A DNA stretch of 64,000 bases, taken from Mytilus edulis. Lineage: Eukaryota. Positions within the stretch are counted from its first letter, which is position 1; the number at the start of each line of letters is the position of its first letter. This document shows positions 452-44,302 of this stretch, one piece after another. The translations under genes and the position numbers were made by a program. The stretch lies in the NCBI RefSeq assembly GCF_963676685.1, contig NC_092346.1, positions 44,702,001-44,766,000 of the forward strand, given 5' to 3'. The notes under the pieces were generated by a model, which saw only the letters and a program-made list of their open reading frames with translations, did no database searches and had not been told where the DNA came from.

Positions 452-2995
452 TTATAAGTTGTTCCAATTTTATGCTGATTTTTAGGCAGTTAAGCTGCCT
501 TATGCGAGCACTCTGGATTTGGGTTCCCCCTGTGAATTTTTGAAAAAGTGCCTTGCTCTGATTTTGCGGGTCTGGTAGATTTTTTATAACTAATTAGACA
601 TTTTTGTCACACTTTTTGTGATGATAAACAATAAATATGTGGAAGGTTACCTTAAATGATCGTCAAATCACCCAAAACAATTGATGTTCCCCAATTGAAA
701 AAGTGCTAATTAAAAGTTAAACATAGCTTTTTATCGTCTGTGCTTTTGGTAAAGATGTAAGTGAACTATAGTAAGAATAATTTCATCGCCGAAAATGTCT
801 GTAATGAAGTCATTAAAATTTGCCAAATGGCGCATGGATATATTTTGCGGCTATTTTTAATCAGTGACGCCGTTGAATTTAGTGGATTCCATTCTATTAA
901 AGGTAAATATTTATAAGCCTTAACTTACTTACTCTCTGGAATAATTCTTGAATTTGTAAGAATACTTGATTATTTTATTTCTACATTGTATGAAGTTATG
1001 TATTTTATTAATTTAATCCGTAAATGCCAGCTGATGTTTTTATTATTTGGCATCGTGCCTCTGCGTACTTGCTATATATCGTGTAAACCCCATAACATTA
1101 TACTCGATCGGGGCCTTTGCAATTCCAATCGGGACCTCATTCAAGATGGTTTCTTTTTTCGTGTTATTTTAATAAAATTCAGGCTTTGGTGTTACAGACT
1201 GATACATGTGCTTTGATATAGCAAAAAAGTGCTTCAAACAGTTTTGAGGTTAATGACAGAATCAAAAAATATAGCATATATATATATATGAGGGTCTGAT
1301 GGGTTATTTTCGTTCTTCGTTATCGGCGCATATTCGCTATCTTGATCCTTTTTTTCTTTTTTCTTTTTTTTTATATTTCGTGATCCGTGATCATTTAATT
1401 TATTTCTCATTATCTCATTATCGTCTCCAAATCTCGATAGGGTAATTGCTTCACTTCCTGTGGTTTTTAACTCCAATTTCTCTGCTAAATGTCTTGTAAT
1501 AAATGACCTTGAGGCGCCTTCGTCAAAAAGGATCTTTGCATCAATCGTTTGGTCTTTGTAGCTTAGTGGTGCTATTGCGGTCTTTAATAAAACATTTGGA
1601 CGAGCACAATTTAAAGATGAATATAAAACAGAAGTCTCAGATTCCTCCGCGTTGTGTTTTTGTACTGTACTTGTACTACTTGTACTTGTAGTTTCTTTAT
1701 CATGATCGTTGTCGCATAGGCTTGTGTGGTGACGTCTATCACATTTCTTGCAGTTTGATTTAGATTTGCAATCTACTACGCGGTGTCGCCCTAAGCAATT
1801 AAAGCACAATCTATCTTCTTTAACAATTTTCATGCGGTCATTCTGGTCTGTATATTTAGTACATTCTGAGAAAAGTGGGGTTCCTTGCAGAATGCGCAGC
1901 TAATTTGATAAGATTTATGTGGTGAATTGGTTTTTGGCCAGTTCTCGCGAGATTTTGTGTTTGTGTAGAATGTAGCTGTAGTACTAGGACTTTCAAATGA
2001 TTCTGTACTGCTACCAGACTCTAAAATTGCCAGTTCCTTAAAAATAGATCTCCTAAGATCACCAAGATACCAATCTGTTGAACCGTGTTCACGAGTCAGG
2101 TTTTTGCGTATTTCACTGGGCATTTTGTTAAGTATGACTGGTACTAATAACGAGCCGTATGAGTCTTGAGTTTGTCCGAGAGATTCTAGTCCACGTATGT
2201 ATGTTTCTGTTCTGTCATAGTAACTTCTAAGTTGCGAAAGCGTATTCTTTGGTGCGGGTATGTCTAGTAGTGCATGTACGATTGAATTATCTTATGCTTT
2301 TGTCCGAATCTTTCATGTATGAGTTCAATAGCTTTGTTGTAGTTTGTGTGCGTAAGAGCAAATCCGGCAATTGTGTATGACGCTTCTCCCTCTAGTAACG
2401 ACTTTAGGTAATTAAACTTTTGAACGTCGGTTAGAGTGTTGTTGTTGTGAATTGCGGAATCAAAAGAATCCCAAAAGGATTGCCATTCAAGTACGTTTCC
2501 ATCAAATGTAGGTAAATTCAATTTCGGTAGTTTATGAAAGTTGCTGCTATTGACGCTTGAATTTGAACGTAAAGACGTGAAATTGAGGCCAGTATTTTGT
2601 GAGTCATCTCTTATGTTATATACGGGGCCAACATTGTGAATGGGTTGCAGTGTCTCATTGTGCGGCGAAAAACTTCTAGCGGCTGCATTTAAATTTGATG
2701 TTTGAGCTTGAATAAATTTACGAATTTTGCGTATTTTCGTCTCTAAATTAAATTTATACTCATCTGTGTCAAGTATCTCTTGCTCTATATCCTCCTCTTG
2801 TACACTATCTAAAATGTTCTTATCCAAATCCTTCAGAATATCTTGCTTTTCCTTTAATGTATCCAGAATAGTTTCCAGCTCGTCCTCTTCCGGTTTTTCT
2901 TCTGTTTCACTTCTCTCCTCAAATCTTCTTAAAATCCTAGAAACTGCGCTTCTGTGTCCCGCTCGTATAGATTTCAGCTTTGAAGTCATCTTCTT

Positions 2996-3010
2996 CTGGT
3001 CACGGTACCA
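2996..3010 (-). promoter_or_regulatory. Primer-binding site of the BEL element (tRNA-His-like)
   Basis: Minus strand TGGTACCGTGACCAG lies between the putative LTR and the gag ATG. It resembles the complement of a tRNA-His 3' end (TGGTGCCGTGAC...) with one mismatch. Confidence 0.65.
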
Positions 3011-3011
3011 A

Positions 3012-3178
3012 TATCGTAAAGTGGTTTTACTAAAACTGCATGTAATATAACAAAGACGTCTAAACTGAATGAATTTGTATTGATGACTGAAGTACAAGAT
3101 AACGTCATAAGTACACAACGTTGGATATACAATAATGCCGCGTTACGTTAAGTTCTCTTCTGTGCGTGATTTCCAACA
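3012..3178 (-). repeat. Putative 5' LTR of the BEL element
   Basis: Begins TGTTGG on the minus strand at 3178 and ends just before the PBS. Its outer edge coincides with where homology to paralog copy B (~35215) begins. Confidence 0.6.
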
Positions 3179-5108
3179 ATACTGTTGAATACCCAAAATG
3201 GTTTTCATTTCTTCAAAAGGAACATTCAGAAAAAACAAAGGCTTGTGTCATAAAAACAAATTTCAAAAAAGTAATGCAATTAGCTTTTTAAAACTTATTT
3301 CCGATGTATGAATACCATTTCCAAAAGCTGATGAGAACGAGGAAAAAACCAACAAGACTAATAAAAATACCATTGCTTGAGCCTCCGCCCTGCTAATATT
3401 TTCTCGATACTTATGCTTTACTCATAAAAGCGGTCTTTTTTTTGTAACTATTCAGTTTATTTTGTGTCTGTCTAGGATAAGAAACTAGAGTATTATCTTT
3501 GACATATTTTGCAGTGAATAGTTTTTATTATGAAAAGAATAGTTTTATGTCAATTGCTATCGCCAGCAAATTATGTTATTTCAAGTTAAATTTGAACTGA
3601 ACCGACTTGGGATAGAGACACTCTAGAATAAGGCAAGTAGTGAAGAAGAAGTGAGCTATTCGGACTTTTCAGAAAATCTGTTCTACTATAATTGAGTTAT
3701 CATGGATAAGTTATGAAATACAGTTTTCTGATCATTCATTTCTTTGCATAGACAAAAATCATGTTTGTTTTATTATCGTTTTTGCTAAATAAATACTGCT
3801 AAAAGTTCAATATAATTGGATATAGTTTGAATTGAATAGCCATGTATTTCCCGTTTTCGATAAATCAAAAATGTTGTGGTTTAAAAAATATGATAGTATT
3901 GATCCGTTTTTATTGGAATGGTTTTTTTTTCAATAGTGATATATTATTCCTTCTTAGTTATGTGCCATTTGTGTCCTAAACTGTGATGTTGTAAACAGAA
4001 TAGTTAATATTCCACCCCGACACTTATTATCATTCAATATTTTTTTGCAAGTTTTTGAGGGGTTTGAGACAAAAACTGTATTGCCTCCCCAACTCTTTCA
4101 ACAAACACACACAGGTCTGTCCGATTTCCAATATATCATTTTATCTTTCAGATATACATGAGCATTGTAAACTATCTGGATATCTAACTGATATCATGAA
4201 AATCACTGGTCCTATGACACCAAAACGTAAGTATGCACTTAAAACACGTATAGCGTTACTAAGCGGTTAGCTTGAAATAACAAGTTGGAGTCTGATCTTG
4301 CTTCACATGTTTTATCCCGAAAAGTAACAATACGTATACAGATGCAAATTGATTATTTTCTGTAAAAATAACGGTAAAACGCCTTTGAATTCTTTGTTCA
4401 CACATTGTTGTTGAAATGATGGAATTTTATGCGATTGTCATTCAAGTGAGAGGTATAGCTAGCTATAAGACCAGGTTAAATCCACCATTTTCTACAAAAG
4501 AAAATGCCTGTACCAAATCAGGAATATGACAGCTATTTTCCATTCGTTTCATGTGTTTTAGCTTTTGATTTTTTGTTTTGATAAGTGACTTTCCGTTTCA
4601 TATTTTTGGAGTTTGGATTTTTTGTTGTCACTTTTTAAACGATTAATTATGATGGTGTTTTATTTTACCATGTTTTTATTACATGTACTTATATTTAGAT
4701 ATTTTGAATACTTAAGAGCAAGCCCATTCATCCTCTAAACGATACTCTCGACTTGCAACTTATAGAATACGGAAAATTACTTTATAAAAAAGAAAATTAG
4801 ATGGAATACTGTCCTTTTTGTTTAAAGTCTTGTTGAGATCTTCAGCGATTAACCAAGTAGTAAAAAAACATGTCTCGCTTTGTTTTCCACTTCATTGCTA
4901 TCAGTTGAATACACACATGTACTACTTTACTTTTTCATAGTGCATCTTTAATTGATGACAATATTAATAAAAAAAAGTATAACTTTAGAACAATGTTTTC
5001 TGTTTCTTTATCACAGAACTGAATATGTTTCAAGTTCTAATCAGGGACCAGGAGTTTAAGCAGAATATTGCAGATGCAAGAAGAATAGCACAAGAATGCT
5101 TAAGTCTG

Positions 5109-5170
5109 GTAGACGAAACGCGCGTCTGGAGTAAATACAAAATTTAATCCTGGTATCCATGGTGAGTTTA
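5109..5170 (+). repeat. 5'-truncated family 2 hammerhead repeat fragment at the exon 3 splice donor of copy A
   Basis: GTAGACGAAACGCGCGTCTGGAGTA...AAATTTAATCCTGGTATC is the 3' half of the family 2 motif plus its tail (compare 12416-12480). It is absent at the paralogous donor in copy B (38853). Confidence 0.8.
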
Positions 5171-5742
5171 TATTATACAAGTTTACCATTTTGAATATAA
5201 AAATAAGCAGAATCTGCTATACATAAAGGCAACAATACAATAGTATACCGGTGTTCATAAGTCATAAATTGATCTAGAGAAAGAAATCCGTGTCGCATAC
5301 TTAAGCCGAGGGGAACACGTCAACTATAAGAGGAAAACGGAGGAACAACGGGAATATCCGGCACCAACGCCAAGTTGAGATATGCACATTTTCATGACGA
5401 TGGTTTAAACTGAAAGATTAATGTCTATCCACAAAACTAAAAACATAGATTGGTATCAAAGGAAAACAATGAATAAGCTACACGAAACCCAATATTAATA
5501 ACACATTATAAAATAATGTCCTCAGGTACAAACACCGTAACAGTACAGAGCTTCCAAAAATTCCCATAGTATATCTTAGCCCGAAGTATAGGTGTAAAAT
5601 TTTAATCAAAATAGAGTAGCTTGAACCTTGATATATACTGTTATGTTTATTTAGGGAAAAGGGAGACAAAAAGAGCAACTTTAAAACTTATAAACGATAT
5701 TAACATAAAAAGTTACCAAAGGTACCAGGATTATAATTTAAT

Positions 5743-5786
5743 ACGCCAGACGCGCGTTTCGTCTACATAAGACTCATCAGTGACGC
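5743..5786 (-). ncRNA. Minimal type I hammerhead ribozyme, family 2 (intact core)
   Basis: Minus strand reads GCGUCA CUGAUGA GUCU uaugu AGAC GAAA CGCGCG UC^ UGGCGU. It has the canonical core, a 4-bp stem II, a palindromic stem III, a GUC cleavage triplet and a 6-bp stem I. Confidence 0.9.
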
Positions 5787-6855
5787 TCAGATCAAAATAG
5801 TTATAAAGCTAAAAATTAACCATGATATTCTGTATTCTGTATTCTTAAATATTTATTTATTTAAGATTTTTATTGAAATCGTGTTTTGTGGAAATGTCTT
5901 TATATAGACTATGTGACACCCAAAATTACATACACACATGTAGAAAAAATTTAAAACAACATTTTGTTTTTAACTTAATAAAATGGTAGCATACCTTATT
6001 TTTGCATTTGATTGGCATATACCCAACAACTCATTTAATTCATACAAATCTGTTGATTGCATTATAGACAAATCTGATTGACCAGCCATATCAAAGATGC
6101 CATAGCAATAAATTCAGTAAACCAAACATTGACACCATTGATTTTGAAACGCGGATGGAACCAGTAGCTGCTAACATAATTTATGTTTGTACAAATCAAA
6201 TGGAGAACATCGCACGAAACATCTTCGAAGAAATGATGTTCGACCATACCCATGAGTGGAACAAAAACCATTTAGCTATCTCAATGCCACCGATTACCAA
6301 ATGTCACACATCAGGAAGCCAAAATATGTGCCTACTGTTCAAAAAGGCGAATTCACTCCCTACGAATCCTGCAAGTCACATCCTTCAGAATTTTCTTACT
6401 ATACGCCAATTGATGCCGTTCCATACAACTGGGCAGCCAAAGCCCCAGACACATATTATGATTTAACAGAAGATGAATATTTTAGAGAAAATTTGTTTGT
6501 GCCAAAATTAGACCTTTCTTATATAAATGAAAATCCTCCTGTAATATCTGTCACAGACAGTTCCATGTTGTCGCTCAGCTCCTGTGAGTCAGAAGGAGCT
6601 TTCAAGAACTGGCTTAAAAGGAAAGACATGTATGAATCAGAAACTACAAGCAGTGTATCCTTGTCGATTTATAATGTTCCAAGAGGTAAGAATAGTTCCA
6701 ATGATAATGAAGGCGTTAAATGTAAAATGTTCTCGTGTGCCCTAAGACTTGCGTTATTCCAATTATTCCTTGTCTTATACTTTTTAATAGAATGAACAAT
6801 GATTTCGACATTCATCTTTTATATAAGCTTTAGATTTCAAATATTTTGGCTACGA

Positions 6856-6898
6856 GCATCACTGAAGAGACATGTATTGTCAAATGCGCATCTGGTGC
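6856..6898 (+). ncRNA. Hammerhead family 1, copy 1 (probably inactive)
   Basis: GCAUCA CUGAAGA GACA uguau UGUC -AAA UGCGCA UC UGGUGC. The conserved G of GAAA is deleted. Confidence 0.8.
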
Positions 6899-7220
6899 AG
6901 GAAAATTGTTACCGTTAATGTCATTATTACCACTGGGTCGATGCCTCTGCTGGTGGACTGTTAGTCCCCGAGGGTATAACCAGCCCAGTATCAGTACTGG
7001 CATGAAAATACGGATTTTTGTTTGTGTTATTAAAATTTGCTGTTATAAAATATTAGAAATTATTTTAAATTACGGAATGTTTCTCCCTCATGCAAAGCTA
7101 TGATTCCTTTCACGGATTTGGCTATACTTTTTGGACCTTTTAGATTATAGCGCTTCATCTTTTAAATAAGCTTTGGATTTCAAATATTTTGGCTACGAGC
7201 ATCACTGAAGAGACATGTAT

Positions 7221-7660
7221 ACCGGGCCACGTCTACTTGTATTTTTGTCCATCTGATGAGTTAAGCCTTTTTCAACTGATTTTTATAGTTCGTTCTTATG
7301 TTGTACTGTTATACCACTGTCCCAGGTTAGGGGGAGGGTTGGGATCCCGCTAACATGTTTAACCCCGCCACATTATTTATGTATGTGCCTGTCCCAAGTC
7401 AGGAGCCTGTAATTCAGTGGTTGTAGTTTGTTTATGTGTTACATATTTGTTTTTCGTTCATTTTTTTTTTACATAAATAAGGCCGTTAGTTTTCTCGTTT
7501 GAATTGTTTTACCTTGTCTTATCGGGGCCTTTTATAGCTGACTATGAGGTATGGGCCTTGCTCATTGTTGAAGGCCGTGACCTATATTTGTTAATGTCTG
7601 TGGCATTTTGGTCTTTTGTGGATAGTTGTCGCATTGGCAATCATACCACATCTTTTTTAT
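7221..7660 (+). repeat. Abundant interspersed repeat R1 (3' end ...GGCAATCATACCACATCTT), inserted into hammerhead copy 2
   Basis: Homologous copies at ~235-451 (+), ~21015-21480 (-), ~47337-47427 (+) and ~61545-61770 (+). It splits the motif GACATGTAT | ATTGTCGAAA. Confidence 0.85.
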
Positions 7661-7991
7661 ATTGTCGAAATGCACATCTGTTGCAGGAAAATTGGTACCG
7701 TTAATGTCATTACTACCACTGGGTCGATGCCTTTGTTGGTGGACTGTTAGTCCCCGAGGGTATCACTAGCCCAGTAGCCAGTACTTCGGTACTGGCATGA
7801 AAATACTATTTTTTTTCTGTTATTAAAATTTGCTGTTATAAAATATTAGAAATTATTGTAAATTAAGGAATGTATCTCCCTTATGCAAAGCTCTGATTCC
7901 TTTCACGGATTTGGCTATACTTTTTGGACCTTTTAGGTTATAGCGCTTCATCTTTTATATAAGCTTTGGATTTCAAATATTTTGGCTACGA

Positions 7992-8034
7992 GCATCACTG
8001 AAGAGACATGTATTGTCGAAATGCGCATCTGGTG
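7992..8034 (+). ncRNA. Minimal type I hammerhead ribozyme, family 1, copy 3 (intact core)
   Basis: CAUCA CUGAAGA (7998-8004) GACA uguau UGUC GAAA (8018-8021) UGCGCA UC^ UGGUG. Predicted cleavage after C8029 (AUC triplet). Confidence 0.9.
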
Positions 8035-11000
8035 AAGGAAAATTGGTACCGTTAATGTCATTAACAATTATTGTCTGTCGTTAATTGACACTCGACTCGA
8101 AAGACACTATATAACAGTTTCTTGTTTTGCATACAATTTTTTTAGCTATTTTAAAAAAGACAAACACTTTTCAGTACTGTAACTTATCTCAATCCGTTTT
8201 TGTCATTTATTTTTTTTCAAAATAAAGATCTCTGTTGACATGTTTTGTTCGTAAGTATAGCTTATTATTGAAAGATGATTTCAATGGGAAAAAAGTCTGT
8301 TGTCAAACGCAGAAATCTTGAAAGAGTAAATGAAAAAATGAAACCAGACTTCAAATTAGAAATGGCTGAGATTGTTACCGAACACGATATATATAAGCAA
8401 GAAGAAACGAAAAGAAGTGACGTATCAATGAGGTTTTGCTGAGGCGAACATCGACTTAACATCAGCAGAAGTGAACGATTTTACAAAACCGAGAGGTAAT
8501 TACATCTATATTTCTTTTTTCCCCAAGAGAATCCAAACTGATACTTGTCATAGTTACTTTTTTTTATTTAAAAAAAATTAATATATTTACCATTTGAAAG
8601 AAGAACAAAAAAAAATCACATACTTTCATGCGTTACATAACTTTACAATTTTAGAAATTCACTGTGAAAAAATATTGATTATTTTTTGCAGAGTCCAAAG
8701 ACATCCTTCAAGTTACTGAAACAAAAGATGAAGCATCAGAAGCAAGTATGACAGAACATCAAAGTCGTGATATTGGACCTATTGAAGAAACTGATAGAGA
8801 AAGACGAGTAATCAAAGCGGCTAAATGAGTTCTAGCCGTTGACACTTTCATGCAACGAAAAAAAGAACTGAAAGAAAGCGAGGAGTTATTCAGGATCGAA
8901 CACTTGAGATATTTTGACTTAGGATCAAGTCGTTCAAGTATGTCAGGCAGTATCAATATCAAACCCCCACCAATGATTACATCGGACACTTCTCAGGACA
9001 AAAGAGACAATTAAGGTACTAGCATTAGAGATAAGGAATGCTATGCAGAACAGCTAAAATTATCAGATACCATAGAAGACAATAAACAAATGAAAGAAAT
9101 AGTTGACAAGAAAAGTAACATCTTATCTAACAGTGATTGTGTCAGTATAGATTCTACGGATATACATAGAATCTATATTGGGGAGTGATTTTGGTAAAGG
9201 CGAGGGAGATGCCGTCAATGCTAAAATGTTTGAAACTGTGTCTTTAAATGAAGCACCAAAACCTGTCGAACCAGTGGAAAGACCTGTATTTGGAAAACTA
9301 CCTTTGCACCCCAATGTCTATCTAAGAAGGCAAGCTATTCTCAGAGAAAAGGCTAAACAAAAAGATATTGAGGATAGTGAAAACAAAGAATCGATTAAAT
9401 GCACCTATAATGTAACTTCAAATAGAAAAGGAAGATGCGATGATGAATACAGTGATGATAAAAAAGATAGCTCCACTTCAGAAACAGATTTTTCTGATAA
9501 TTATTCATATGAATCGGATTTCAATGAAGAAAGCCACGAGAGTGACAGTTTCTGTAGTAAAAATCCAGATGGAAACAATGAATTGCCATTAGAAATTAAC
9601 GATATCATAAAGGAAAGTAACAGACAGCAAGGGTTAATAAAGCATGAAGAATCAGAAAAAAACGTAAAAGGTTGGTTTACAAATTACATATACGTTTTTA
9701 AATCTTTGGGAGGGTTGTTGTTTTTTTTACACATTCCCTGTTTCCATTTTTCCATTTTACAATATTTACAAAGCAGTTATTGAACCAATGATAACTAATA
9801 TGATACTGTACTGTAGCACTTAAAAGAGAACGACAGTTTGAAAATGATAACTTGTCGAAATTAAAAAGGGAATATAAATCTGAAATGTAACTTCAAATTC
9901 AAACGAACTATGTGTTTAAATTATTGGATATTTTGAAATCGCATCTTTTACATACATTTTAAAGTCGCATTATTTCTCGTTATCGATGCTCCAATCGTTA
10001 TCGTTAATGTCCAACATAAAAAAATCTGGTAACATCTCATTGCATAAATGCATGAAAAAATTTCTTAAGATAAATATTTGACTAAAAAGTACAATCACAA
10101 ACACACTGAACTCAGAAGAAAATTCATAACGAAATATCCCTTATCAAAATGGCAAAATCAAATGAATAAAAGTGTCATATTTAAAAAAAAATGTATTTGA
10201 TTTGATGTTTCAGGAGGCCAACAAAGTTTGCAGGATATATGCACAAAGAATGATTTGTCAACTGCCAAAGATTTTGCCCCAGAGAAGGAATATTCTGAAA
10301 ATTTATCTGCATCCCTGATAATTGAAACCAAAAACAATACCAATGAATATGATATAAAAGAATTAAACATACTAATGCCAATGGAACAGAACGAAAAGGA
10401 ATCATCTACAGAATCGCTGATCAATATTGGTGGTGAAGGAAATAGTGGGTTATTTGACAGGAAAGAAAATTCGTTCAAAATCACTAAATGCATTAACGAC
10501 AACGAAAATCATTCAGAGTTTACCGAACCGAGCGCAACCAACCTGATTAACATGGTAGCCAGTGAAAACAACATATCCAAATTAACGAAAAGTCACAGCA
10601 ATACTCAAAGTGTTGACCAAAAAGTGGCATTAAACGAGAATGTATCAAACCTACTAATAACAACTAAAAGTCATAGTGACACTGGAACCAGTGGGATGTC
10701 TGTAAGGCAAAGACGGATTGGACATAACAATCTTTTGAGAAAATATGAAGGTATGTACTTTCTGAAATACGATTTTGTCAACTTTCAACATAATTTAAAG
10801 ATTTTAATCAATATATATGATTTTAACGAACTTAAATAACAATAAACAATACAAAACAAAAGATCGTGTTAACACTTACAGCTAATCAAAACTTCGTCAA
10901 TATTCTGTCAAGAAGGTTTACATCTTATGAAATATACTCATATTAGTCAATTTATACGATTCCAAAATCAAATCTTCTTTATAGAGATTGTTTAATTTAC

Positions 11001-12269
11001 GAGTTTTTCTCTTTCAAAGACATTACAAATCACGGAATATATAGAGAAAATTAATCATGATATGTAATAGTACAAGCATAAAGTTTCTGATCATAGACCT
11101 TCTGAGAGACAAGTAGACAATGTATTTAAAATCATACAAAATCCCTGTTTGTTTATATCAAACACAGATATATAAAGCAATGCACAAATATAAGAATGAC
11201 AAAAGAAAATATATAATTCTATATTGAAAGACAAGAAAACAAAATGCGTAAATGAAAGCAATATGTACATTTAGATGATATTTGAGTTCGGATGTGAAAT
11301 TATCATTTTTAAAGAATATATTAATTTTTTTTTAAATCTTTCCTTTATTTTGCAACATTTAAAATTCACAGATGAAAACAAAAAGAGAAATATTATAAAA
11401 AATAAAAATAACATCGAATTTGATAAACCAGAAGAAGAAAAATACCAAAGTACGACTGGAAATGATTATGTATCAACTGAGAGTTCTGGTTCATGGGAGC
11501 ATCAATGTAAATGATATTGAATGCACAATGAAGTCATTGGTTCATTTCAAATGATCAAATATCCAATATAAAGTCAGATCCATCTCTTGCAGTCAGTATA
11601 CCAGGAAATTGTGTGTTATATAATGGGAAATTGGTCATATCAGATGAAGGTGGAGACAAAACATCTGATGATGACTCACTTATCAACATGCCAGGAGAAG
11701 AACTGACAAAATTGAAAACTTCAATCCAGAATAAAATAAGCCAAAGTGAAAGTAACAAATCCTTTTACCAAGCACACGTGCACTTGCTAAAACCGTCGCT
11801 ATCTTTGTTAGCCCCAGGTTCTATACAACGTCCAGGGCTGTTGGCACCACTTCTCCCTATTCAGGAAAATGTTCATGAAAAACTTCAACAGAATATATCA
11901 GTAAAGAAAAGGTAAAAAAAAGAAGAAAAAGATAAAAAATAATATAAAGAAGGGAACCTTGCAATGGCCAACACCAAATCAAGCTACAACAGATCCACAC
12001 TGTGATTCTAGTGCAGGTTCTATTTCTATGCCGTCGTTTGAACTTGCAGAGGATTTGGCATTGAAAAGCACCAAAGATTTAAGTGGGTCGAAAACAAACG
12101 TTAACCTTGATTTTAAAGACCCCCTGTCAAGTATATCCATACAGTCCCGCAAACAAGTCAAATTTAAGGAAGACGAAGAAGAATTTTTTTTATAGATTCC
12201 TTCAAAAGTGCAGACGAAGAATCAGCAGAGAGTTTTATTAATAGTGACATTGTTTCAGAAAGGTCATTT

Positions 12270-12480
12270 CTTTTCTACCTCAGGCATAGATTACCTTAGC
12301 TGTATTTGGCAACACTTTTAGGAATTTTGGATCTCAATGCTCTTAAACTTCGTACTTTATATGGCTCTTTTTTTTTTTTTTTTTTTGGGATTCGAGCGTC
12401 ACTGATGAGTCTTTTGTAGAAAAAACGCGCGTCTGGCGTATATATAAAATTTAGTCCTGGTATCTATGATGAGTTTATTT
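12270..12480 (+). repeat. Family 2 hammerhead-bearing repeat with mutated core
   Basis: GCGTCA CTGATGA GTCT tttgt AGAA AAAA CGCGCG TC TGGCGT at 12396-12439, with CG of AGAC-GAAA changed to AA. The upstream flank is homologous to 20700-20809 (minus). Confidence 0.8.
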
Positions 12481-13690
12481 TCAATCTTCACACGAAGTTT
12501 CTATATCACGGAGAAACTTCCGTGAAGATATGAATAGAAAGATGAACGAATAGTTTAGTATAGATTCATACGAAAGTTCCGACTCAGGTTAACTTATTGT
12601 ATTTTAATGTTATACATGTACAAGGAAACAAGTTTTTGTATTTTTTTTAAGGTTAATGTTCATATTTTTTTCCCAAAGTGTTATCCATCCTAACGATCAT
12701 TTTAGCATTGGTTCGTTAAAAAAATTCGGATAATTTATTTTGTTTCAATGATATGCCAGAAAACAAGTATATGCATTTAGTTTTTAGCGTTATGTACATA
12801 TCGATATATAAAACAAATGTCGAATTTATTTTTAATTATTTTTTGTCTATATTGTTTGGGTTTTTTTTATGTAATAAAAAGTTGCTATAAACTTTACTTC
12901 CAAAGTGTTATCCATACTTAAACTAATGAAAGATCATAAAGGTATTTACTCAACGAAATGAATTATTCAAATGTGCATTTAAATTAGTGTTGTCAAATCG
13001 TACACTTTTGCCTAACCAGTTACTCGTATAATCGTTCGACCGATTAACCGGTTAACCGGTAGTTTAATTTAATGTTTGAAGGCCTTATCAATAGTACCCT
13101 ACACATCGATATAAGAAGATGTGGTATGAGTGTCAATCTGACTACATTCCATCCAGGTCATACATTTACGTTTTATAATACGTTGATTTGAAGTTTGGCC
13201 TTTGGTTTTATAAGGCTTGTCTGTGAAGATTCCTGTCGAAGTTTGAATTTTAATAATCAAATTCACGGTATCAACTATGGCGTTTGTACTTACTTCAAAT
13301 TGAAAACTAAAAAACCCAAACGTCTTGATCTCGTAGAATTGAATATGTCTAAAACCGATGATTCTTCCATTTTGTCTTGTTGTCTCCGAAAATAATGTGA
13401 GGTGTTTCAATTAAAATTGATTAATCCTGATATTCGTATCATCAAGTATACATTGATTACATTCACGTTGATTTGCTTTTTTACAGTTTTTGAGTTAGCA
13501 TTTAGTTTAAAGTATGACAAAGACTTGCACGACGGAGATTGCACATTCTACATAATATAAGATCAAAAATGAAATAATGAAGTAAATCGTAAAATTTAAT
13601 CGTATTACTGATTAAAAATTACTGTTAAAAAAACATAAAACTAATTATGTTTCCTTAAGATCTTGCCCCGAGCTGAGAGACAAGTTCTAA

Positions 13691-14435
13691 GGGCGCACTA
13701 CGTTTGCGCGCATTTGGGGATTAAAATATTTTACGTTTGCGCGCAGCTTTTGATTACATTTGCGCGCATTCATTTTACAGGTAATCTCAGGTAAAAATAA
13801 TAAATCATATATATTAACACAATGATAAAATTATAAATGACTATACTTTATTGGTATTTTAATAATAAATATGACTATCAATTATTAATTTTGAAAAAAG
13901 TTTGTTAATTCAAATTATATATTGTTCATATTGAATTCTAAAAACAATTTAAAACCCCGATATATATATATATATCTTAAGTTCAAATGATAAATGGGCT
14001 ATATCACAGATTTCTTAAACTTTTGTCTACACCTTTGACTTGTTGAACTGTATATGAAAATCGGAGAAAAATATGCGGCTTTATCTCCTTTTTCCCTGCC
14101 TAAGAAGAGACTTAGGCTAACTGAAGGGGTACTGATAATTGTAAATAATTGAACAAATTGATAAATAAATATTAAGTATTATAACCTGTATTTTCCCTAA
14201 AATATTATTGATTGAATTCTTTCAAAATAGGTGCCTTAGGAGACTTAGACTAACGGAAGGGGTACTGATACTTGTAAATAATTGAACAAATTAATAAATA
14301 ATAAAGTATTATGACCTGTATTTACCCGAGTTTACCTGTCAAAAAAATGCGCGCAAATGTAAGCAAAAGCTGCGCGCAAACGTAATGATTTTTACGCCCA
14401 AATGTAATGGTAATGCGCGCAAACGTAATGCACCG
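13691..14435. mobile_element. MITE with ~100-bp imperfect TIRs rich in TTTGCGCGCA
   Basis: Inverted arms 13691-~13795 and ~14320-14435, direct repeat AGTTCTAA on both flanks, internal ~130-bp duplication (~14105-14330). Confidence 0.8.
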
Positions 14436-14635
14436 AGTTCTAATTAATTTTATATTTTTGGATTAACAATACTTATCGATATACTGGACAATTGATCCGT
14501 CAAATTGATTACCTGATGACGACAATTTTTAAAGAAAACACAACTATTTAATGATTTCAATACAAATTTATATCAAATCTATTAGAATAAAAAATAAAAA
14601 GTCTACTGTTGCCTTTATTAATAGATCTTTTATAT

Positions 14636-15238
14636 CTGGGCGTCACTATTGAGTCTTGTGTGGACTAGACGCGTTTTTGGCGTATTGAATTTTAAACCTG
14701 ATGCTTTTTGTTATCTATTAATCATGCTTTTCTTTGTCTAATATGGTCTCCTTTTTATTTGTATTGTAGTCCTGTAATATTATGTTGTCATTTCAATGTT
14801 ATATTTAACTTTGCCATTAAAGTGCGAGGTTTGGCATGCCATAAAACCAGGTTCAACCCACCACTTTTATTCCCCTTTAAAAGTGTCCTGTACCAAGTCA
14901 GGAAGATGGCCATTGTTATAATATTGTTCGTTTCTGTGTGTGTGTTGCATTTTAACGTTGAGTCGTTTGTGTTTTCTCTTATTTTTTAGATAAGACGTGG
15001 CACGGTACTTGTGTATCCCAAATTCATGTCTTTGGTTTTGATGTTATATTTGTTATTCTCGTGGTGTTTTGTCTATTGCTTGGTCCGTTTCTGTGTGTGT
15101 TGCGTTTCGGTGTTGTGTCGTTGTTCTCCTCTTATATTTAATGCGTTTCCCTCGGTTTTAGTTTGTTACCCCGATTTTGTTTTTTGTCCATGGATTTATG
15201 AGTTTTGAACAGCGGTATACTACTGTTGCCTTTATTTA
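14636..15238 (+). repeat. Interspersed repeat R2 headed by a degenerate family 2 hammerhead
   Basis: GGCGTCACTATTGAGTCTTGTGTGGACTAGACGCGTTTTTGGCGT is a decayed hammerhead. It is followed by the common GAGGTTT..ATAAAACCAGGTTCAACCCACC module (also ~4450, ~38185, ~46487) and ends CTACTGTTGCCTTTATT. Confidence 0.65.
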
Positions 15239-16716
15239 TAGCGTTTTTGGTATTCGGTATTCGGTCGTTCGAACGGTTAACCGGTTAAACGGTTAACCGT
15301 TGACAACACTAATTTAAATGCATGTATTTAGGAGTTGGGTATTTAACAAAGATGTTTTACTTATAAATATGGAGATATGTTATAAGGCAAACGACATGGA
15401 TACAAGCATAATTATGTAGGTCAGCGTACAACCTTCAACATTTGGAAAAATCCATACATTATTAATCACGATACTTCTACGACCAGTAGCAAAAGTTATA
15501 CAAAAACAACATTTATAAGATAAATATTTGAAGGAGGCTGAATCTGAAGAACCTTCGAGACTAAATATAAGTCCCAAGATGGAACCAAACGCATTTTGAC
15601 GATCTCATTATCACCAAAATCTGAGCATCCTGAAAGACATATAGTTCCAACTATGATTCATAGTCAGAACTATATGTCTTTCAGCTGACATAGTATGACA
15701 GATCTATATCCCTTTATAGAAGACAAGAGTGTAACTTTTTTTTAAATCCGCTGACTGTTGCACAGTAACTGAGAGATAATCAACATGTTACGGCTGACAC
15801 TAAGAACAGAAAATTGACTATTTGGAGTCACAAACTGCTCCTGTAGATTGCCTGATTGATCTTGTGATACCCTTGGTTGCTCTTTTATAAACGTCTCTCT
15901 TCCCTTTACACAGAAAAGTAGATCGTCATTAGCAGATTAGAGGAAGTCGAAACAATTTTGCACAACACACAATAATAGTTTTTGGAACCAACATTGCTTT
16001 GGTCAGGCTAGAGCAATAAGCATGGTCTTAAAAATATCACTCTGAATTGTGTGCAAGATATTGGGGGGGGAGGGGGGAGACGAAAGGGCCGGAACATGTA
16101 AATAAACATTCCCTTTCTATTCAAGCCGTTTCGCCTAGAAAGGGGGAACATTAGTCTCCAAATTGTGATTCAAACTGGTGGCAAAAAGATCTATATGATG
16201 ACGATCCCAATGAAGAATGGTCTTCTGAATTGACAAATTTCCATTCTGGGTTCACTGGAACAGGCGAACGGGAAAGAGGAAGAAGATTGGTGTGTTCCTT
16301 CAAGTGAGCACCTGACCAAACACCTCAGGCTATTCTGCTCACCAGATAAACTCCCCGACCAATCAAGCTCACATCTGTGAACAGAGATAGACTGATGATC
16401 CAACAAAACTCTTCAGAAGCCACTACTTAAGATGAGGTAACAACTGATGAATAATTATAACAGGTGTATCTCACAACTGAGAAATTAGGTGCCAACACTC
16501 CGACAGATGGACGAATGTGTAGACATCGTAGTGGAATGGCGTCCATTACTCAAATCAAGAAACCCACCAGCTGAAGTAATTAAGGAGCTGTGATAGTTGA
16601 TAACTGTATCAGAGCACTGATTAACTGATTAGCTGACTTAAAATGTTCCCCATGTCTGCAAAATGAGTCTCAAGAAATGACAAAAAATGGGATGTAAAAA
16701 TAAGCGTCCATCAATA

Positions 16717-19700
16717 CAGAGATAGGTTCAATTACTTTCAATGTAATTGATTAAATTACAATTACTTTGTCATTTGTACTATTAAATTAAATTAATGATT
16801 ACATCATTTCTGAAAGTGTCTGATTAAATTAATGATAACATTGGCAAAGTAATCATGATTACATCTGATTACAATGAATTTAAAAAAACAAAACATTTTG
16901 AACGAAGTGAATGAATAAACGTTTAATATACTATAGCATTTTTAGAAAGGACTATGTTTCATATATTATAAAATGATAACTTTTAACTTCATCTATTTAA
17001 TAACGCACAAAAGTTCACTACATACATGAACATTGTGTCACGGGTTTTAATCCATTACACTTTGTCATCCTTGATCTCTGAATTATTCTAACGGCAATTG
17101 AATAAAACTTTATAAAGAGTTTGCTCTTTGTCTTCTTATCTCTTTCAGACTTATATGAATTTCAAGGTGCAGTTTATGGAAGCTGAAATATGGATGAAAT
17201 AAAGTTACCAGTAAAAATCTATGTAAAATTTCAATAAAATTGTTCTTTCAAATTGTAAACAAAATACAAGTACTAAACATCATTGCATTTTACATGTCCA
17301 GTCCAAATACATATAAAATTTTGCTTATTTTAAACAATATTTTACCAACTTATAATTTTGTTTGTGCTAATTATAGAATTTTTTGTCCTACAGCTATACT
17401 CAATTGGTAATTGCAAAAAAAACAAACCTTAATTAGTTTCCTACCTGTCAATTCAAAGTTGACAAAAATCACAATATTAACAAAAGATTATAATTCAGGG
17501 TTAAAGATAAGTATTACTAGAATATAACAGTTATTATCAAATAAATATATATATGTACATCATTAAATTGTCAATATATGTACAATATCTTTTACTAAGG
17601 CCAAAGACATAATTGTATTTATATGTCTCTTCTTAGGCTAATGCTGTAACAATTTTTTTTTACTGAAGTATACAAATTAATATACATGCTTTATTTTTTT
17701 TTATTGCATAAACGTTGTGCACGATGTTCCTACAACACGACGTTACACTAAAAATGCGGCGTCAAAGAGGGTTTTTGACTTCGATTAATTTTTGCAAGTT
17801 TTATTCGGGTTTTTATATGTTGTTGGTTGATTCTGTTTCTGTGTTTTTTGTGATATCATTTTATCATAAATTACCTCAAGTTGTGGAAATCAATTTAGTA
17901 ATGTTTACCCTTTAAGTTATTTCATCTATAAATGCATTTACTGTCGCAAGTAATGTAGGATTGATTGATTGATTGTTGGTTTCTTTACTCCGCATTAGCA
18001 CAAAAAGGCTATATATCGCGGCGAGTAATGTAGGAAGGAAAATGTGACGGAAGTACATGTACATACGGTTTTCCATAAATAATTTTTTTTTAGATGTGCA
18101 AAACTTTTATCATAGGATGTTTAACTTTCATGTATATCATGTCATTGTAAAATTTCTATATCTTAATTCAACCCAAATACAAATATATCTGACAGTCTGC
18201 AAGTAAATCGAAACATTTTTACCCTTGGTTAATTTGAATAGCATTGTATTTTCCCTAGCACGTAATTTGTCGAAATACACCCCTTCAATTACTTGAACCT
18301 TGGCTCGAGAATTATTTCCCAAGTCATCTAAAGTTGCTTGCTTAAATTGTTTTACTTCTGATATACATTTTAAAAGATAGAAGTCTACTCCTGAATATTG
18401 TCCGTAAAAACGGATAATATAATCCCGGGTTTTATTAATTCAATGAAACGGTTTTCGTCGCTGTTTGGAATTAGTCTTTCAATTACATCCATTTTATGCA
18501 CAAGTTTATATTGACGAAAAGTTCCGGGTTCGCTAGTACGGGAATTACTTTCTTTCATCACGACAGTTATCACATGAATAGCAGGACAAATTGCGAAGTA
18601 AAACATTCCTTGAACTTGTATTAAGTCTTCAAATATTGGTGAATGCACCTTACTGAAGTGACGACTTTAAATGATTTATTTCGTAGTACTTTCGCAACAT
18701 AAATTAAAATTCGAATTTAACATTTAGAGGACTGTCTTGGTGTCTCCAATTTGTCTTTGCAAAAGTTGAACGAAGTTCATGTAATGAGATTTTTTTCCCT
18801 TTTACCATTCTTTTAAATAAATCGTTAAAAGCTATAAACGATTAATAAAAATTACAAAATTTAACCTGTGTCAAATCTATGTCTCGGCCAGAGTCTATAG
18901 CAACATGCACTATTCTTTTTTTTCGGCAGCCATAAACATCTTTTTTCCAAATTTCACCACACGATTTGTGTTAATTATCATGAACATTTAATTCAAACTT
19001 TTGCACATGTACGTTGGAAATGAGCGTTTTTCGGATTTTTCGACGTTTTCAGACGTTTGGACAAAATGGCTACCGTTTTGTAATGTGTTGAAGAATTTTA
19101 TTCCTTAAAGACCCAAATATGTAGTTTATAAGGAAAGAATCTTGGCATGTTGTACTCTTCGTGTATCTAACTTTTGATTTGATCAATTATAAATAACTTA
19201 TTGGAATGTCAGTTAAAAAATACGCGTAAACTACTTTGAAAAATGAAATATCAACTTGGACAAAATGGCTACCGCTTGAAAAACGACTGTGTAGAGAAGA
19301 ATTTATAAAATCTGCAATATTTGAATTCACGAACAATGAGGCAAATATTTGTACTTTTGGTAGATGATATTTTTTTCTTACTCTTTTTATTCGTTTTCCG
19401 CTATATCTACTTTTAAAATTCACTTTCAGTCGTTAAGTTCCCGAAAAACGTCGTTGGACATTTTTCTTATTCTTGCTTAATATGCAGCCACCGACTCAAA
19501 TGAAATTTGGCAAAATAACGGCTTTAACGACACAAAGAACCGACACATGTCGTTGTTCATGCCAAGTTTCCGGAAGATCAGAGAATAAAAAATAGGATCA
19601 CTATACATAAGAGTTAAACCAGTTTTTCATAAATGTAACGTTGGACATCCGTTTTTTTCACATAGCTTTGTTATTTTAATCCTCAAATATACTGGATATT

Positions 19701-20039
19701 ACTATATGATCAAGAGCTATAAAAACATAATTTAAAACATATATTGAATTTGTTTTAATAGTGGTTCGTGTTTGCTAACATTTTTATTTTGTTTTACGGA
19801 GGAAATTTGGAAGATTCTGTTTTAAATCCTAGGGGTTGTAGGAACAACGTGCGTAACGTTATTGTAATCAGAATGTAATCTAAAAGTAATCAGGATAACA
19901 GGGTGTTTTGAAAAGTAATTGATTAAATTAAATTACATGTAATCAGGTTTTTGGCTGATTAATGATTACAATGATTACTTGAAAAATTGTAATCAATTAC
20001 AGCTGATTAATGATTACAATTACAATTACCCCAAGTCTG
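16717..20039. mobile_element. Non-autonomous hAT-like element with GATTAC/GTAATC-rich subterminal arms
   Basis: CAGA...TCTG termini, inverted arrays of AATTAC/GTAATT motifs at both ends, flanks CCATCAATA / CCATCAAA (imperfect TSD). Its removal restores the DIRS RT motif. Confidence 0.75.
17711..19860. mobile_element. Nested DNA transposon remnant, superfamily unassigned
   Basis: Imperfect ~26-bp TIRs AACGTTGTGCACGATGTTCCTACAAC / GTTGTAGGAACAACGTGCGTAACGTT, with decayed coding fragments at 18137-18648 (-). Confidence 0.6.
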
Positions 20040-20656
20040 CCATCAAATCTAGAGAGATTGTCCCAATTCCTGAATTTAATGTCTACCTGATCGATCTGTT
20101 GGTTTCCATTTTGAAATGTGGGACCACAAGGTATCGATTGAGAACAGAAAGTCCTAGAACTGGTCTTAATTTTCTGTTCTTTTTGAGAATTAAGAGCAGC
20201 CGAGAATATTATCCATAGATAAAATGGTAGATTTACCTCCGCCAACACACCCTTCTGAAAAAGAATTTTCACTTCGTCTTGAAACACCTGATTCTTTTCA
20301 GAATCTTTTGTCATTAATAGATGGATTAGAGCAGAAGAAAGAGGAGGCTGTTCCAAAAAACCGATGATCCACTGGAAAATGAGGGAGAGGAGTACAATAA
20401 GTTCCCTCTTCCAGTGGGGATTGATTTAACGGGTGGAAAAATACACCACTTAACCTGCTCTTTACTCTTTACAACTTTGGACGAATTTGTAGACAATTTC
20501 TAGAAGATAGATGTTTTTCTTTAACTGCGAACCTGACCAAACAACTCCGGCTGTTCAGACGATGGAGAAAACATACATAAAAGCGAACTATTTTATAATA
20601 AAATCCATATTCCTGACTTTGTACAGTTATCAAAGGTACCAGGATTATAATTTAGT

Positions 20657-20700
20657 ACGCCAGACGCGCGTTTCGTCTACATAAGACTCATCAGTGACGC
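20657..20700 (-). ncRNA. Minimal type I hammerhead ribozyme, family 2 (intact core)
   Basis: The 44-nt motif is identical to 5743-5786 and lies within a repeat spanning ~20624-20809. Confidence 0.9.
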
Positions 20701-21014
20701 TCATTTCAAAATATTTATTAAGCCAAACAAGTACAAAGTTGAAGAGCATTGAGGATCCAAAATTCCAAAAAATTGTGCCAAATACGGCTAAGATAATCTA
20801 TGCCTGGGACATTTTAGGACAAAAATGATGGGTTGAACCTGATTTTATGGCAAGCAAAATCTCCCGCTTATATTGCATTCCCTGTCTGCATATAGAGTTT
20901 ATATAACTGCCTTATAAGATCTTATATAATGATAAAGGTTATTTTTTCATTCATATTATATTCTTTATTGTAGGATTATCCCAGAAAGAAATCACACATT
21001 GAAAGATGGTTGAA

Positions 21015-22519: not shown

Positions 22520-25500
22520 CGAGTTCTGTGCCACAGGGCCGATGATCGGCCCAAAGTCATACTCCTTTCAGTGCCAAAGGGCCGATTCATCGGCCGATTG
22601 AAATGATGTTATGAACTACGTAATGTACTATGACGTCGCCGTTTTTGTGATAAATTAAATTCCTCCGTCTTGAAATATTCGCGCGTTTTTTACCAAGATT
22701 AAAGATATGAAAGGGGAGCTTTGTTATGAAATTTACGAAAATAAAATTATGAAAGGATGCGTTTATAAATATGTATATAATATTTAGAACTATAGAGTCT
22801 CAAATCCACTCTTTTTTCCGACGCTTTTGCAGTAGGCCATTTAGTATATTTATGCATTCTAGGCTAATGTTCATAAGTTTTTACTTTGCAAAAATTGTAA
22901 GAATATAAAACAAATAAAATTGTGCATACAGAAAATATAGAATATACAAGTTATTCAAATAAGGACAAAAAAAAAACCTTTACAAAGAACGGATAAGAAA
23001 AAAAAATACAAAACTTAAAAAGATGAAAAAGTACGCAAAAAGTGCACTACACACTTGAGTGCCAGGAATATTTGTGATTACTCCCTTTGAGTGCCAAGAA
23101 TCGGCCCTACATAAAGTTGTTTTTTCGAGAGAACGTCATAGACGTAATTATTATACAACGTCATAAACGTCAATGGAATAAATTTGTTCTGCGGAGAGGC
23201 ATTTTTCAGACAAGAAGACGGATAGATAGAGCTGACTTGTTGACGATTTAAACATGCAAACCGATATCTGATAGTTCGAAAACTATGCATTTGTTTGTTT
23301 TTGTACTTTCTTCGTTTTAGATTGTGTATTTTTTCATACTTTTGAGTTCGAAAGAGATGAACAATTTAACTTATAAAAAGGGTGGTTTTTTTTCTTGTTT
23401 CAAAATTATTTATGTTTGAAAGACAAAGCAACAAATTATATTTTATCGCAAAAATTTCTCTCTCAAATATTTTTTTTTCTTGCCTTGTTTTTCCACGAAA
23501 AATCCATGCCCCCTTTTTGCAAGTTAAATTGTCCGCCTCAAAGCGATCGACCTTTTAGCTAAAACAAAATCTCTGTTCATTTTTTTTTACGCGATGCAAC
23601 ATTTTCCTAATAGTTTGGCATTGTAGTTTATGTTAAATATTCCCTTTCAGCTTGTTTTCTTCCCTTAAATGCCAGATTTTTATTTTATTCAAGTGTAGAA
23701 TCAAATTATTTATTTCCGAAAAAAAAACGTGCCCTCCTTCCTCCGAGTTTCAAATGTTCGTTCCATAAGTTAAAGAAAGACAAAACCTTGTCATTAGAAA
23801 ATAAAAATACAGCTTTTAATTCAGTTTATGTTTTTACAAGAATATTTTTTATCATAATTCACAAAACAATTTTTTAACATAGTCATTATTCCATTATTAA
23901 CATTCGTGTCTATGAACACATAACTTGTGCAGTCCCTTCGCGCAGCGTGAACACTCGGTCCTTTTTCTTCTTCGTCTGCCGTTTTTCCTGTCGGAACACA
24001 CAGTACAGTCTTTTTCTTTCCTTTCCGTTAACTTCCGTATTTTTTGTCGTTGTCCAGGATTCTGCTTTCTATTTGATAGATGTTCCTCAGTGAGTCCGTC
24101 ATTTACTTGTTTCACGAATTCAAATCTTGTTAATATTGGGTTATGAGATGTGTGTTGATAATACAGGATATAAGAATTAAGCAGTATTCTGTGAAACATG
24201 TGTAATATAATTTTTTTCCATACTTTGGTTTGTTTTTTGTGATCGTTATAAAATGCCATCATTTAATCCGAAAGGTCTACACCGCCCATGAAGTTGTTGT
24301 ACGCGTTAACGATAAGTGGTTTTGCATTCATTGCTCAGACAGCGCTATAAAACGTAGACACTAGCTTTACCTGCTTACGTCGATTCTGTTCTCGGAAGGT
24401 GCACAACAGTATGGGTCCCTGTCTAGCATAAGTTGTCTGTCCTGGATCGGGATTAGCGTTCTTAATCATGTTAGGCATGGGTCGTTTTTTTCGTAAAGTA
24501 CCTGTAAGGTGGGTTCTCTGAACAAGGAGTGTTCTTGTAAGATTTAAGGATGAGAAGAAATTGTCCGTAAAAACATGATACCATTTATTAAGCAGATCAG
24601 CAGATTGTAACAATTTAATTACCACGTTTGTTCCTTGTAATGTACCAGCAGGGAGAGCGGGTTCGAAAGTTTTGCCGAGATAAATGTGCATTTGTAAAAC
24701 GTATCCCGTAACAGCTTCCGCGAGAACCCATAATTTTATTCCGAAGCGGGATCTTTTGCTCGGAATGTATTGCAACACTGCCGTTTTACCTTTTGTTCCG
24801 ACCAACGTCTCGTCGACTGACAACTCCCGTCTTGGTCTATAGTAGTACAGAAATTTTCTATTTACGAAGTCAATTAATGGTTTAACTCTTGAAGCCGGAT
24901 TGTAGTTTTGGTTATTTCTTGCCGGGATCTTTTTACAGTCTACAATATGCAAGAATTTTAAAACATTTTGAAAGCGATTGCGGGCAAAAGTCATTCTAAA
25001 CCATGGAGTAGATTGAGACATGTTTTTTCGATTCCAATATTCTTTTATAGAGCTTTTCCTATTTAATCCCATATTGAAAAGGACGCCTAAAAAAGCCTTG
25101 AACTCGGAAATTGTAAGCTTTCCTTCTTTTCTCCACTGACATTTCCTGGAAAATCTACCAGTCTGGAATCTAGTTCTGTCATACAGGTCTGTAGCATATC
25201 TGAAAATTGTAATGATTGTTATTGAAAGATTATGATCAATTAAGATTACTTTTATTTTTTTATTTTAGAAAAAGCACCTTTATAATCCTACATGTATGCC
25301 TTGAAGAAATAATCCTAATTTAAGCCGTCTTTCTCGTTTGCCAATTTTGATGTCCTTCAGACAGAATCTTTAATAAAAGAATGATATTCTATGTTGTCAT
25401 ATAAGTGAAAACCCATCCAAAAACATATTTTATTCAATTTATCGGAATATTATCACTCGTTCTTCGCGTGAAAACTTTTGTTTTCATTGACTCGGTCCTT

Positions 25501-44100: not shown

Positions 44101-44302
44101 TGATATGGTAGCAAATGAAACTGAAATATTCAAATTCTCAAAAATTCACAGCAACACTGAGAGTGTTGACCAAAAAGTGTCATTACATCTGGATGTATCA
44201 AACATACCAATATCAACTAAAAGTCAGAGTGAAACTGGTACGAGTGGGATGTCTGTAAGGCAAAGACGAATTGGACATAATAATCTTTTGAGAAAAAAAT
44301 GA
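35117..44302 (+). CDS. Uncharacterised acidic low-complexity protein, copy B (9 coding exons, 965 aa predicted)
   Basis: Exons 35117-35120 (ATGG|gtgagt), 37245-37319, 38761-38852, 39167-39380, 39709-39782, 40729-41356, 41670-41894, 42100-43140 and 43758-44302. All introns are GT-AG with consistent phases; total 2898 nt with no internal stop. Begins MDIHEHCKLSGYLIDIMKITGPMTPNQLNMFQVLIRDQEF. No domain recognised. Confidence 0.75.
35401..36455. repeat. 38-bp minisatellite, ~28 copies, in intron 1 of copy B
   Basis: Consensus CCTACTGCTTCTGATATTTTCTCGATACTCATGCTTCA. Confidence 0.95.
37386..37728 (-). mobile_element. tRNA-derived SINE with TSD
   Basis: Minus-strand head GAGCCATGGCGTAGTGGTTAG (A box) ... 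GGTTTGATTCC (B box). TSD TAGCCTTTATACTA / TAGCTTTTATACTA (37372-37385, 37729-37742). Absent from copy A (~4250). Confidence 0.85.
40103..40430 (+). mobile_element. HINE/pearl-like non-autonomous element with (GAAC/GGAC)n microsatellite
   Basis: Microsatellite 40310-40380 is followed by the 3' palindrome ATGCCCC..CTA..TAG..GGGGCAT. It interrupts a copy of the AAAGGCAACA.TAGTATACCG repeat. Confidence 0.65.

Follow-up and report, generated by a model that had tools for sequence, protein, structure and literature searches.

In a 64,000-nucleotide (nt) stretch of the Mytilus edulis genome (contig NC_092346.1, positions 44,702,001 to 44,766,000; called here the window), dispersed repeats carry hammerhead ribozymes of two kinds, family 1 and family 2. 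It is likely that these repeats are 5'-truncated insertions of two sister families of non-long terminal repeat (non-LTR) retrozymes, and that they were copied into DNA by the reverse transcriptase (RT) of Naiads, a type of Penelope-like element (PLE), through a folded RNA signal of 60 nt that both families hold in common. The Naiad RT is a relative of telomerase. A preliminary description of the window had seen in the two hammerhead families two diverged lineages of one selfish RNA whose ribozyme structure is kept. Whole-unit homology, compensatory base pairs and the existence of a third family bear this out.

A folded block common to retrozymes and Naiads

The genome was searched over 1.37 Gb in 14 large contigs. 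Exact patterns matched 12,914 times for family 2 and 4,311 times for family 1, and reversed control patterns did not match at all. A generic hammerhead pattern gave 21,317 matches, compared with ~5000 in the available text on Mytilus galloprovincialis (PMC7229834). From 60 loci, 17 distinct head-to-tail units of 332-368 nt were obtained, with one hammerhead each. Units of families 1 and 2 typically measure ~350-365 nt, have a GC content of 36-39%, and occur solo or in tandem. No conserved protein is encoded, and the longest ATG frames vary between units (21-61 amino acids (aa) in family 2 and 28-113 aa in family 1). End to end, the two families are 65% identical to each other, and identity within them is 95% and 86%. 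Family 2 further divides into subtypes 2a and 2b. One array consists of four identical units, and the units of two others differ by 9 and 16 positions. No chimeras between families stood out among the first 100 of the 21,317 generic matches.

Metazoan non-LTR retrozymes have units of ~170-400 nt with less than 45% GC and code for no conserved protein, and the mussel repeats agree with this. These features recall the retrozymes of M. galloprovincialis, in which type I hammerheads were found in two similar families of 350-390-bp repeats of low GC content (PMC7229834). Families 1 and 2 are probably non-LTR retrozymes of the same sort, and the second family is probably not new. Their identity with the two published families is probable, and the published pair may correspond to families 1 and 2 or to subtypes 2a and 2b. 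In the same work, a retrozyme monomer (of unspecified family) cleaved at ~0.1 per min, circles were reported, and PLEs were proposed as helpers, while its available text names no helper family, fixed 3' end or common signal (PMC7229834).

Evidence for a common signal comes from comparing family 1 with three family 2 units. A block of 60 nt downstream of the cut site is 89-93% identical. By contrast, identity is 71-74% in the hammerhead, 57-67% in a hairpin after the block, 62-65% in the 100 nt upstream of the hammerhead, 60-63% in the middle of the unit, and 54-60% in the tail. Every region scores above shuffled sequences (z 2.3-14), and the block alone stands out. The block also folds better than shuffles (z -2.8 to -4.8). 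The loop of the hairpin that follows is UUCG in families 1 and 2a, and this hairpin shows, judged by eye, two further compensatory pairs.

The same block occurs in Naiads. Among 20 loci around GIY-YIG hits, the sole element with an endonuclease before its RT carries a partial block at its start. Three Naiad families, A, B and C, encode proteins of 1053, 1007 and 1000 aa that are 56-64% identical and show the Naiad hallmarks, namely an N-terminal GIY-YIG domain before the RT, CxC and DKA (PMC8557442). They resemble the published Naiads in 5' truncation and partial tandems as well, and the main text of that study mentions no stem-loop or hairpin, nor does its available text describe a 5' RNA structure or a retrozyme partner (PMC8557442). 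In all three families, 8-15 nt separate the end of the block from the first ATG. It was found in 18 of 21 Naiad loci, and two of the three loci without it have other sequence upstream. Family C is young, with 131 scored RT matches at 98-100%. In one of its loci, L218, ~15 head-to-tail copies of the block alone, 83 nt each, stand directly before the open reading frame (ORF; L218:1-1214).

What is conserved in the block is its pairing. When three retrozyme and three Naiad versions were compared, all 66 of 66 cells paired, and seven of the 11 pairs changed on both sides. None of 500 shuffles matched this covariation, and controls slid along the alignment reached at most two pairs. The changes include G-U wobbles, which are valid on the sense strand only. 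The inner core is invariant across versions. A model of the block (R1), built from five versions and run on 49 sources, gave 74-91 bits for Naiad B and C (both included in the model) and found both blocks of the window, at 6928-6991 (80.7 bits) and 7714-7777 (82.2 bits), both on the plus strand. It had no match in nine loci of a third retrozyme family, and none was found beside ORFs in 19 control loci around hits of PLEs with a C-terminal endonuclease; three matches in these control loci all fell inside decayed retrozyme copies.

Further evidence comes from the ends of insertions. Of 21 family 1 insertions, 20 have their 3' end +32 to +42 past the cut, and 28 of 31 family 2 insertions have it at +36 to +52; 5' ends are spread from 42 to 350 nt upstream of the cut. 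The gap between the insertion end and the first helix of the block has a median of 5 nt in family 1 (n=14), 6 in 2a (n=30) and 8 in 2b (n=7). In Naiads A, B and C it is 6 nt each (n=14, 12 and 17). To avoid selection on the hammerhead, 30 loci were picked by the tail alone. Of these, 27 cross the cut site; the other three end in the tail, no more than one of them less than 3 nt from the cut. In the genome, 12,914 of 14,642 hammerheads (88%) run on into TGG, as a decay of ~3% per base predicts. This implies a template unbroken at the cut site, either a circle or an uncut multimer. Retrozyme target duplications, when present, are longer than 4 bp; a few matches of 5-7 nt that may be such duplications were noted by eye.

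A third family of retrozymes behaves differently. Family 3 has 282 pattern matches and units of 504-551 nt, with a stem II like that of family 1 and a different stem III palindrome. It shares with families 1 and 2 the hammerhead and a few flanking bases but lacks the Naiad block. Of 22 copies, 13 have their end at +364 to +369, for the most part within TA repeats. It is likely that family 3 has another helper. RNA reads are plentiful for this family given its number of matches.

Hammerheads and their transcripts

The family 2 hammerhead is a canonical type I ribozyme, with the CUGANGA, GAAA and NUH core and helices I-III, open at helix I. Two 44-mers on the minus strand of the window, at 5743-5786 and 20657-20700, are identical and have an intact core, as first described. 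In a full-model alignment to Rfam RF00163 each scores 33.0 bits (E 6e-5), and the gathering score is 34; a scan of the whole window at the Rfam gathering threshold gave no match to any family. The family 1 hammerhead was not detected as RF00163 at E up to 1. Family 2 has the letters of the Rfam consensus throughout stem III and at the base of stem II. Metazoan type I hammerheads are described as having a 6-bp helix I, a 4-bp helix II and a short palindromic helix III that favours dimers, and in helix sizes and palindromic helix III family 2 is like them (PMC4209133).

Compared with the intact family 1 copy of the window at 7992-8035, family 2 has 12 differences, eight of which make up four double-sided compensatory pairs: A-U to G-C in stem I, A-U to U-A twice in stem II, and U-A to C-G in stem III (family 1 given first). 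The other differences lie at N7, at two bases of the loop and in the outermost pair of stem I; one mismatch is private to the family 1 reference copy. All 12 invariant core positions are unchanged, and the stem III octamers are palindromic in both families. These results agree with the preliminary description, which had listed the same four pairs, a core differing only at the variable position 7, and self-complementary stem III sequences. In family 3, the palindrome of stem III is changed again and is still self-complementary, constituting a fifth compensatory pair.

Is this covariation more than chance? The answer depends on the control. When 12 changes were placed at random, at least four compensatory pairs arose in 17 of 200,000 trials. 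However, all four changes fall on one branch, and a pair-level shuffle of eight distinct hammerhead copies reached the five observed pairs in 110 of 500 shuffles, which is not significant. Slid controls on these eight copies gave at most two pairs. The covariation of the two families taken alone is real but expected, and has probably been published. Single genomic copies show no sign of selection: a full hammerhead is present in 22 of the 30 tail-selected loci, with changes at 11 of 264 core positions, 12 of 528 stem positions and 6 of 110 loop II positions. It is proposed that selection works on source lineages while single genomic copies decay.

Dimers mixed between the two families are predicted to cleave more slowly. 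Stem III duplexes have computed energies of -10.5 and -13.3 kcal/mol within families and -8.9 kcal/mol when mixed. In a mixed-family dimer, each core would contain one mismatch (in helix I or III) and an extra G-U pair. Constrained folding yielded no extended helix I.

RNA reads from four runs cover units of families 1 and 2. The runs carry the same species label and come from a different individual than the genome, and the usual stranded chemistry is assumed. In three of the four libraries first mates favour the opposite strand for both families, indicating RNA of the ribozyme strand. Reads also pass through the junction upstream of the block.

Retrozyme and Naiad copies in the window

All family 2 copies of the window are truncated pieces. 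On the minus strand, a family 2a insertion at 5706-5813 consists of ~70 nt before the cut and a 43-nt tail that stops at the fixed 3' end of the family. It holds the first of the two intact hammerheads, with a predicted cut after GUC between 5749 and 5748 (hammerhead numbering). A second family 2a insertion, also 5'-truncated and on the minus strand (20625-20806), has 145 nt before the cut and a 38-nt tail and holds the other, with a predicted cut between 20663 and 20662. It sits within a repeat common to the 3' untranslated regions (UTRs) of Naiads, with ~2 nt of microhomology and no target duplication seen. On the plus strand, a 5'-truncated family 2b insertion (12270-12484) has a hammerhead at 12396-12439 in which G12 and a base pair of stem II at its base are mutated, and which is predicted to be inactive. 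A 2b-like insertion on the same strand (5109-5171) is cut inside the hammerhead, so that the 3' half (5109-5133) and the tail are left. Both had been described as damaged, and so they are. Two fragments of a family 2 body without a hammerhead lie at 44340-44527 on the minus strand.

Family 1 is represented by two copies on the plus strand. One, of ~1.2 units (6811-7220), has a hammerhead at 6856 without G12 and another at 7199 that is cut off. The other is a full unit of 350 nt with a 34-nt tail (7660-8063), and its intact hammerhead at 7992-8035 has an AUC site. GGTACC occurs in the tails of both families, as was noted originally.

One supposed family 2 copy has a different origin. The motif at 14639-14684, first taken for a damaged member of the family, lies inside a recent, 5'-truncated Naiad B 3' end on the plus strand (14625-15239). 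This stretch matches the final 615 nt of the Naiad B unit of locus L203 at 97.7% identity. The dead hammerhead itself (14640-14683, plus strand) has nine differences from family 2 and two from the Naiad UTR copy. In all seven of seven loci, the 3' UTR of Naiad B contains a fragment of ~270 nt with 70-72% identity to family 2 and a dead core, and this fragment stops at the normal 3' end of family 2. Naiads A and C have no match to the family 2 upstream flank. The dead motif has 77 exact matches genome-wide, and six of eight checked loci continue to the Naiad B end. The simplest reading is that a retrozyme inserted into a Naiad long ago and has travelled with it as a passenger ever since.

A short copy of the terminal bases of Naiad B (14603-14624) stands just before this insertion. 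Other repeats that match the 3' ends of Naiads (A, B or C) lie at 34644-34816, 46308-46675, 38115-38375, 4393-4595, 38877-38989 and 5219-5338, and many of the abundant short repeats of the window may be Naiad tails.

The family 1 copies sit between exon-like frames of a diverged duplication (~4100-10800 and ~37190-44300) whose parts are 83-93% identical and ~33.5 kb apart. The frames are of low complexity, and Pfam gave no match for two of them. An abundant dispersed repeat occurs at 243-467, 7462-7681, 47342-47446 and 61559-61787. Two open frames on the minus strand are presumably remnants, one of a Bel/Pao-like gag-protease (1234-3142) and the other of a piggyBac-like transposase (23897-25264). 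Tandem arrays lie at 35399-36456 (38 nt, 27.8 copies) and 58423-59213 (169 nt, 4.7 copies).

A model of copying by Naiad reverse transcriptase and its alternatives

How might a Naiad enzyme copy a retrozyme? From the literature and the anatomy of the units, tandem transcripts would cleave themselves, probably aided by pairing of the palindromic stem III, and a host ligase would circularise the cleaved unit. Naiad RT may then bind the block in circular or multimeric RNA and nick AT-rich DNA. Copying would start 5-8 nt upstream of the block and run back through the resealed cut site and the hammerhead. The RT would then either stop, leaving solo truncated copies such as those in the window, or circle again, giving arrays.

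A precedent comes from the Poseidon element PAc of the green anole, whose RT, in vitro, nicks AT-rich DNA and starts inside RNA at fixed sites that agree with where genomic copies end (PMC11167929). In the available text, PAc is autonomous, has a C-terminal endonuclease and has its start in a stem-loop that is AC-rich; in mussel retrozymes, by contrast, the start would lie just upstream of the structure, and the RT is proposed to be used in trans. Vertebrate retrozymes have sequence in common with PLE termini and have been proposed to hijack PLE enzymes (10.64898/2026.07.22.740005). As far as its available text goes, that study sampled no mollusc and proposed no Naiad partner or specific signal. 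A link between mussel retrozymes and Naiads was not found in the available literature, the supplements of which could hold one.

Several observations weigh against the model of copying by Naiad RT. The inner core of the block never varies, and therefore covariation gives no support to the core pairs. The structure was derived from the sequences that were tested, which makes the controls lenient. Held-out Naiad A scored only 20-23 bits (E 0.03-0.19) because it has a 25-nt insert. Intact 5' ends were checked for only part of the 19 control loci. The lowest-energy fold of the 44-mers is not the hammerhead, and whole-circle folds were no better than shuffles in two of four units (z 0.45, -0.6, -1.8 and -2.3). 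In the RNA reads, the strand bias is absent in one of the four libraries, no pile-up of read ends at the cut site appears for either family in any of the four runs of fragmented RNA, and reads this short do not tell RNA circles apart from copies that are tandem or embedded. For PAc, the one PLE tested in vitro, the available account has uncut RNA as the principal substrate and normal insertion by hammerhead mutants (PMC11167929), so the circle step may be dispensable. Binding, cleavage and circles are predictions in this analysis.

One alternative is that the block is a promoter or 5' leader inherited from Naiad, in which case the fixed end is the start of the RNA and tandems come from template jumps. 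That the Naiad unit opens with the block, immediately ahead of the ATG, fits this idea, and retrozymes need some transcription signal. Part of the block also resembles, with one mismatch, the B-box consensus of RNA polymerase III. However, it is base pairs that are conserved, including wobbles that work on the sense strand only, Naiad B lacks the B-box-like letters, and the 4-10 runs of at least four T in each unit would stop RNA polymerase III. A promoter or leader is thus an unlikely explanation of the block.

It is very unlikely that the block is an unrecognised self-cleaving ribozyme, cutting just upstream and replacing the hammerhead in Naiads, with insertion ends as cleavage products. 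Naiads do lack canonical hammerheads, the invariant core lies inside covarying helices, and the offset of the end is constant. On the other hand, an E-value scan of three loci against Rfam returned the hammerhead family only, and none that fits the block. The helices are nested rather than like those of the hepatitis delta virus (HDV) ribozyme, and the ends spread over 2-10 nt. Reads cross the junction, one array has four identical units, and the available text on M. galloprovincialis reports abundant 350-nt circles (PMC7229834). Interpretations of the block as HDV-like, as a twister or as a kink-turn were dropped after comparison by eye with consensus structures. When 20 PLE loci were searched with a hammerhead descriptor, all matches but one were retrozyme copies; the exception is a distinct hammerhead-like motif with a longer stem II that adjoins a GIY-YIG hit (L107, near 4393, minus strand).

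The preliminary description had tentatively placed the RT recognition signal in the ~100 nt upstream of the hammerhead and suggested looking for an autonomous PLE sharing that flank. This placement is now highly improbable. The flank is indeed alignable between families (in the two window copies, score 72 against 33.5 +/- 7.8, reached in 0 of 1000 shuffles; z 5.5-6.8 for homology), it is present in nearly every copy, and it has the 70-72% match in Naiad B. But its conservation is no better than that of the unit middle and well below that of the block, and 5' truncation by itself accounts for its being there in the copies. The match in Naiad B belongs to the longer, decayed family 2 fragment with a dead hammerhead, with no counterpart in Naiads A and C. 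Family 3 shares the hammerhead and a few flanking bases, yet has its own end far downstream. An autonomous PLE was found, in the form of Naiad, but the feature common to all three Naiad families is the downstream block and not the upstream flank.

There is scant likelihood that the copies are made by a hammerhead-bearing PLE of the Penelope or Neptune type, or by a long interspersed nuclear element, with the block as a relic of origin. Intact ORFs of the Penelope/Neptune type exist in this genome, and vertebrate retrozymes resemble the pseudo-long terminal repeats (pLTRs) of such PLEs in the available text of that study (10.64898/2026.07.22.740005). Against this, neither the block nor the common flank was found in the 19 control loci, the end offset of retrozymes equals that of Naiads, and one would not expect a relic to be better conserved than all the rest of the unit. 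Spread as satellite DNA by recombination, without an RNA step, can practically be dismissed, for although head-to-tail arrays occur, the majority of loci hold a single dispersed copy, fixed at one end and variable at the other.

Copying by Naiad RT through the block thus remains the favoured model. A fuller version of it, for which belief and doubt are evenly matched, is that the block is a docking site that sets the start of Naiad RT and was captured by hammerhead circles, which are thereby copied repeatedly by an element that has no ribozyme itself, that Naiad B in turn captured a retrozyme, and that the families diverged such that mixed dimers have a mismatch in each core, which would keep the lineages separate as rivals for a single helper.

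For the step from retrozyme circle to DNA in animals, the available literature proposes an enzyme and does not show one. The model put forward here is directly testable because it offers a young, named helper (Naiad C), a signal that covaries across six families, and a start site predicted within a few bases. If true, it would show how a Penelope-type RT chooses an internal start on a foreign RNA.

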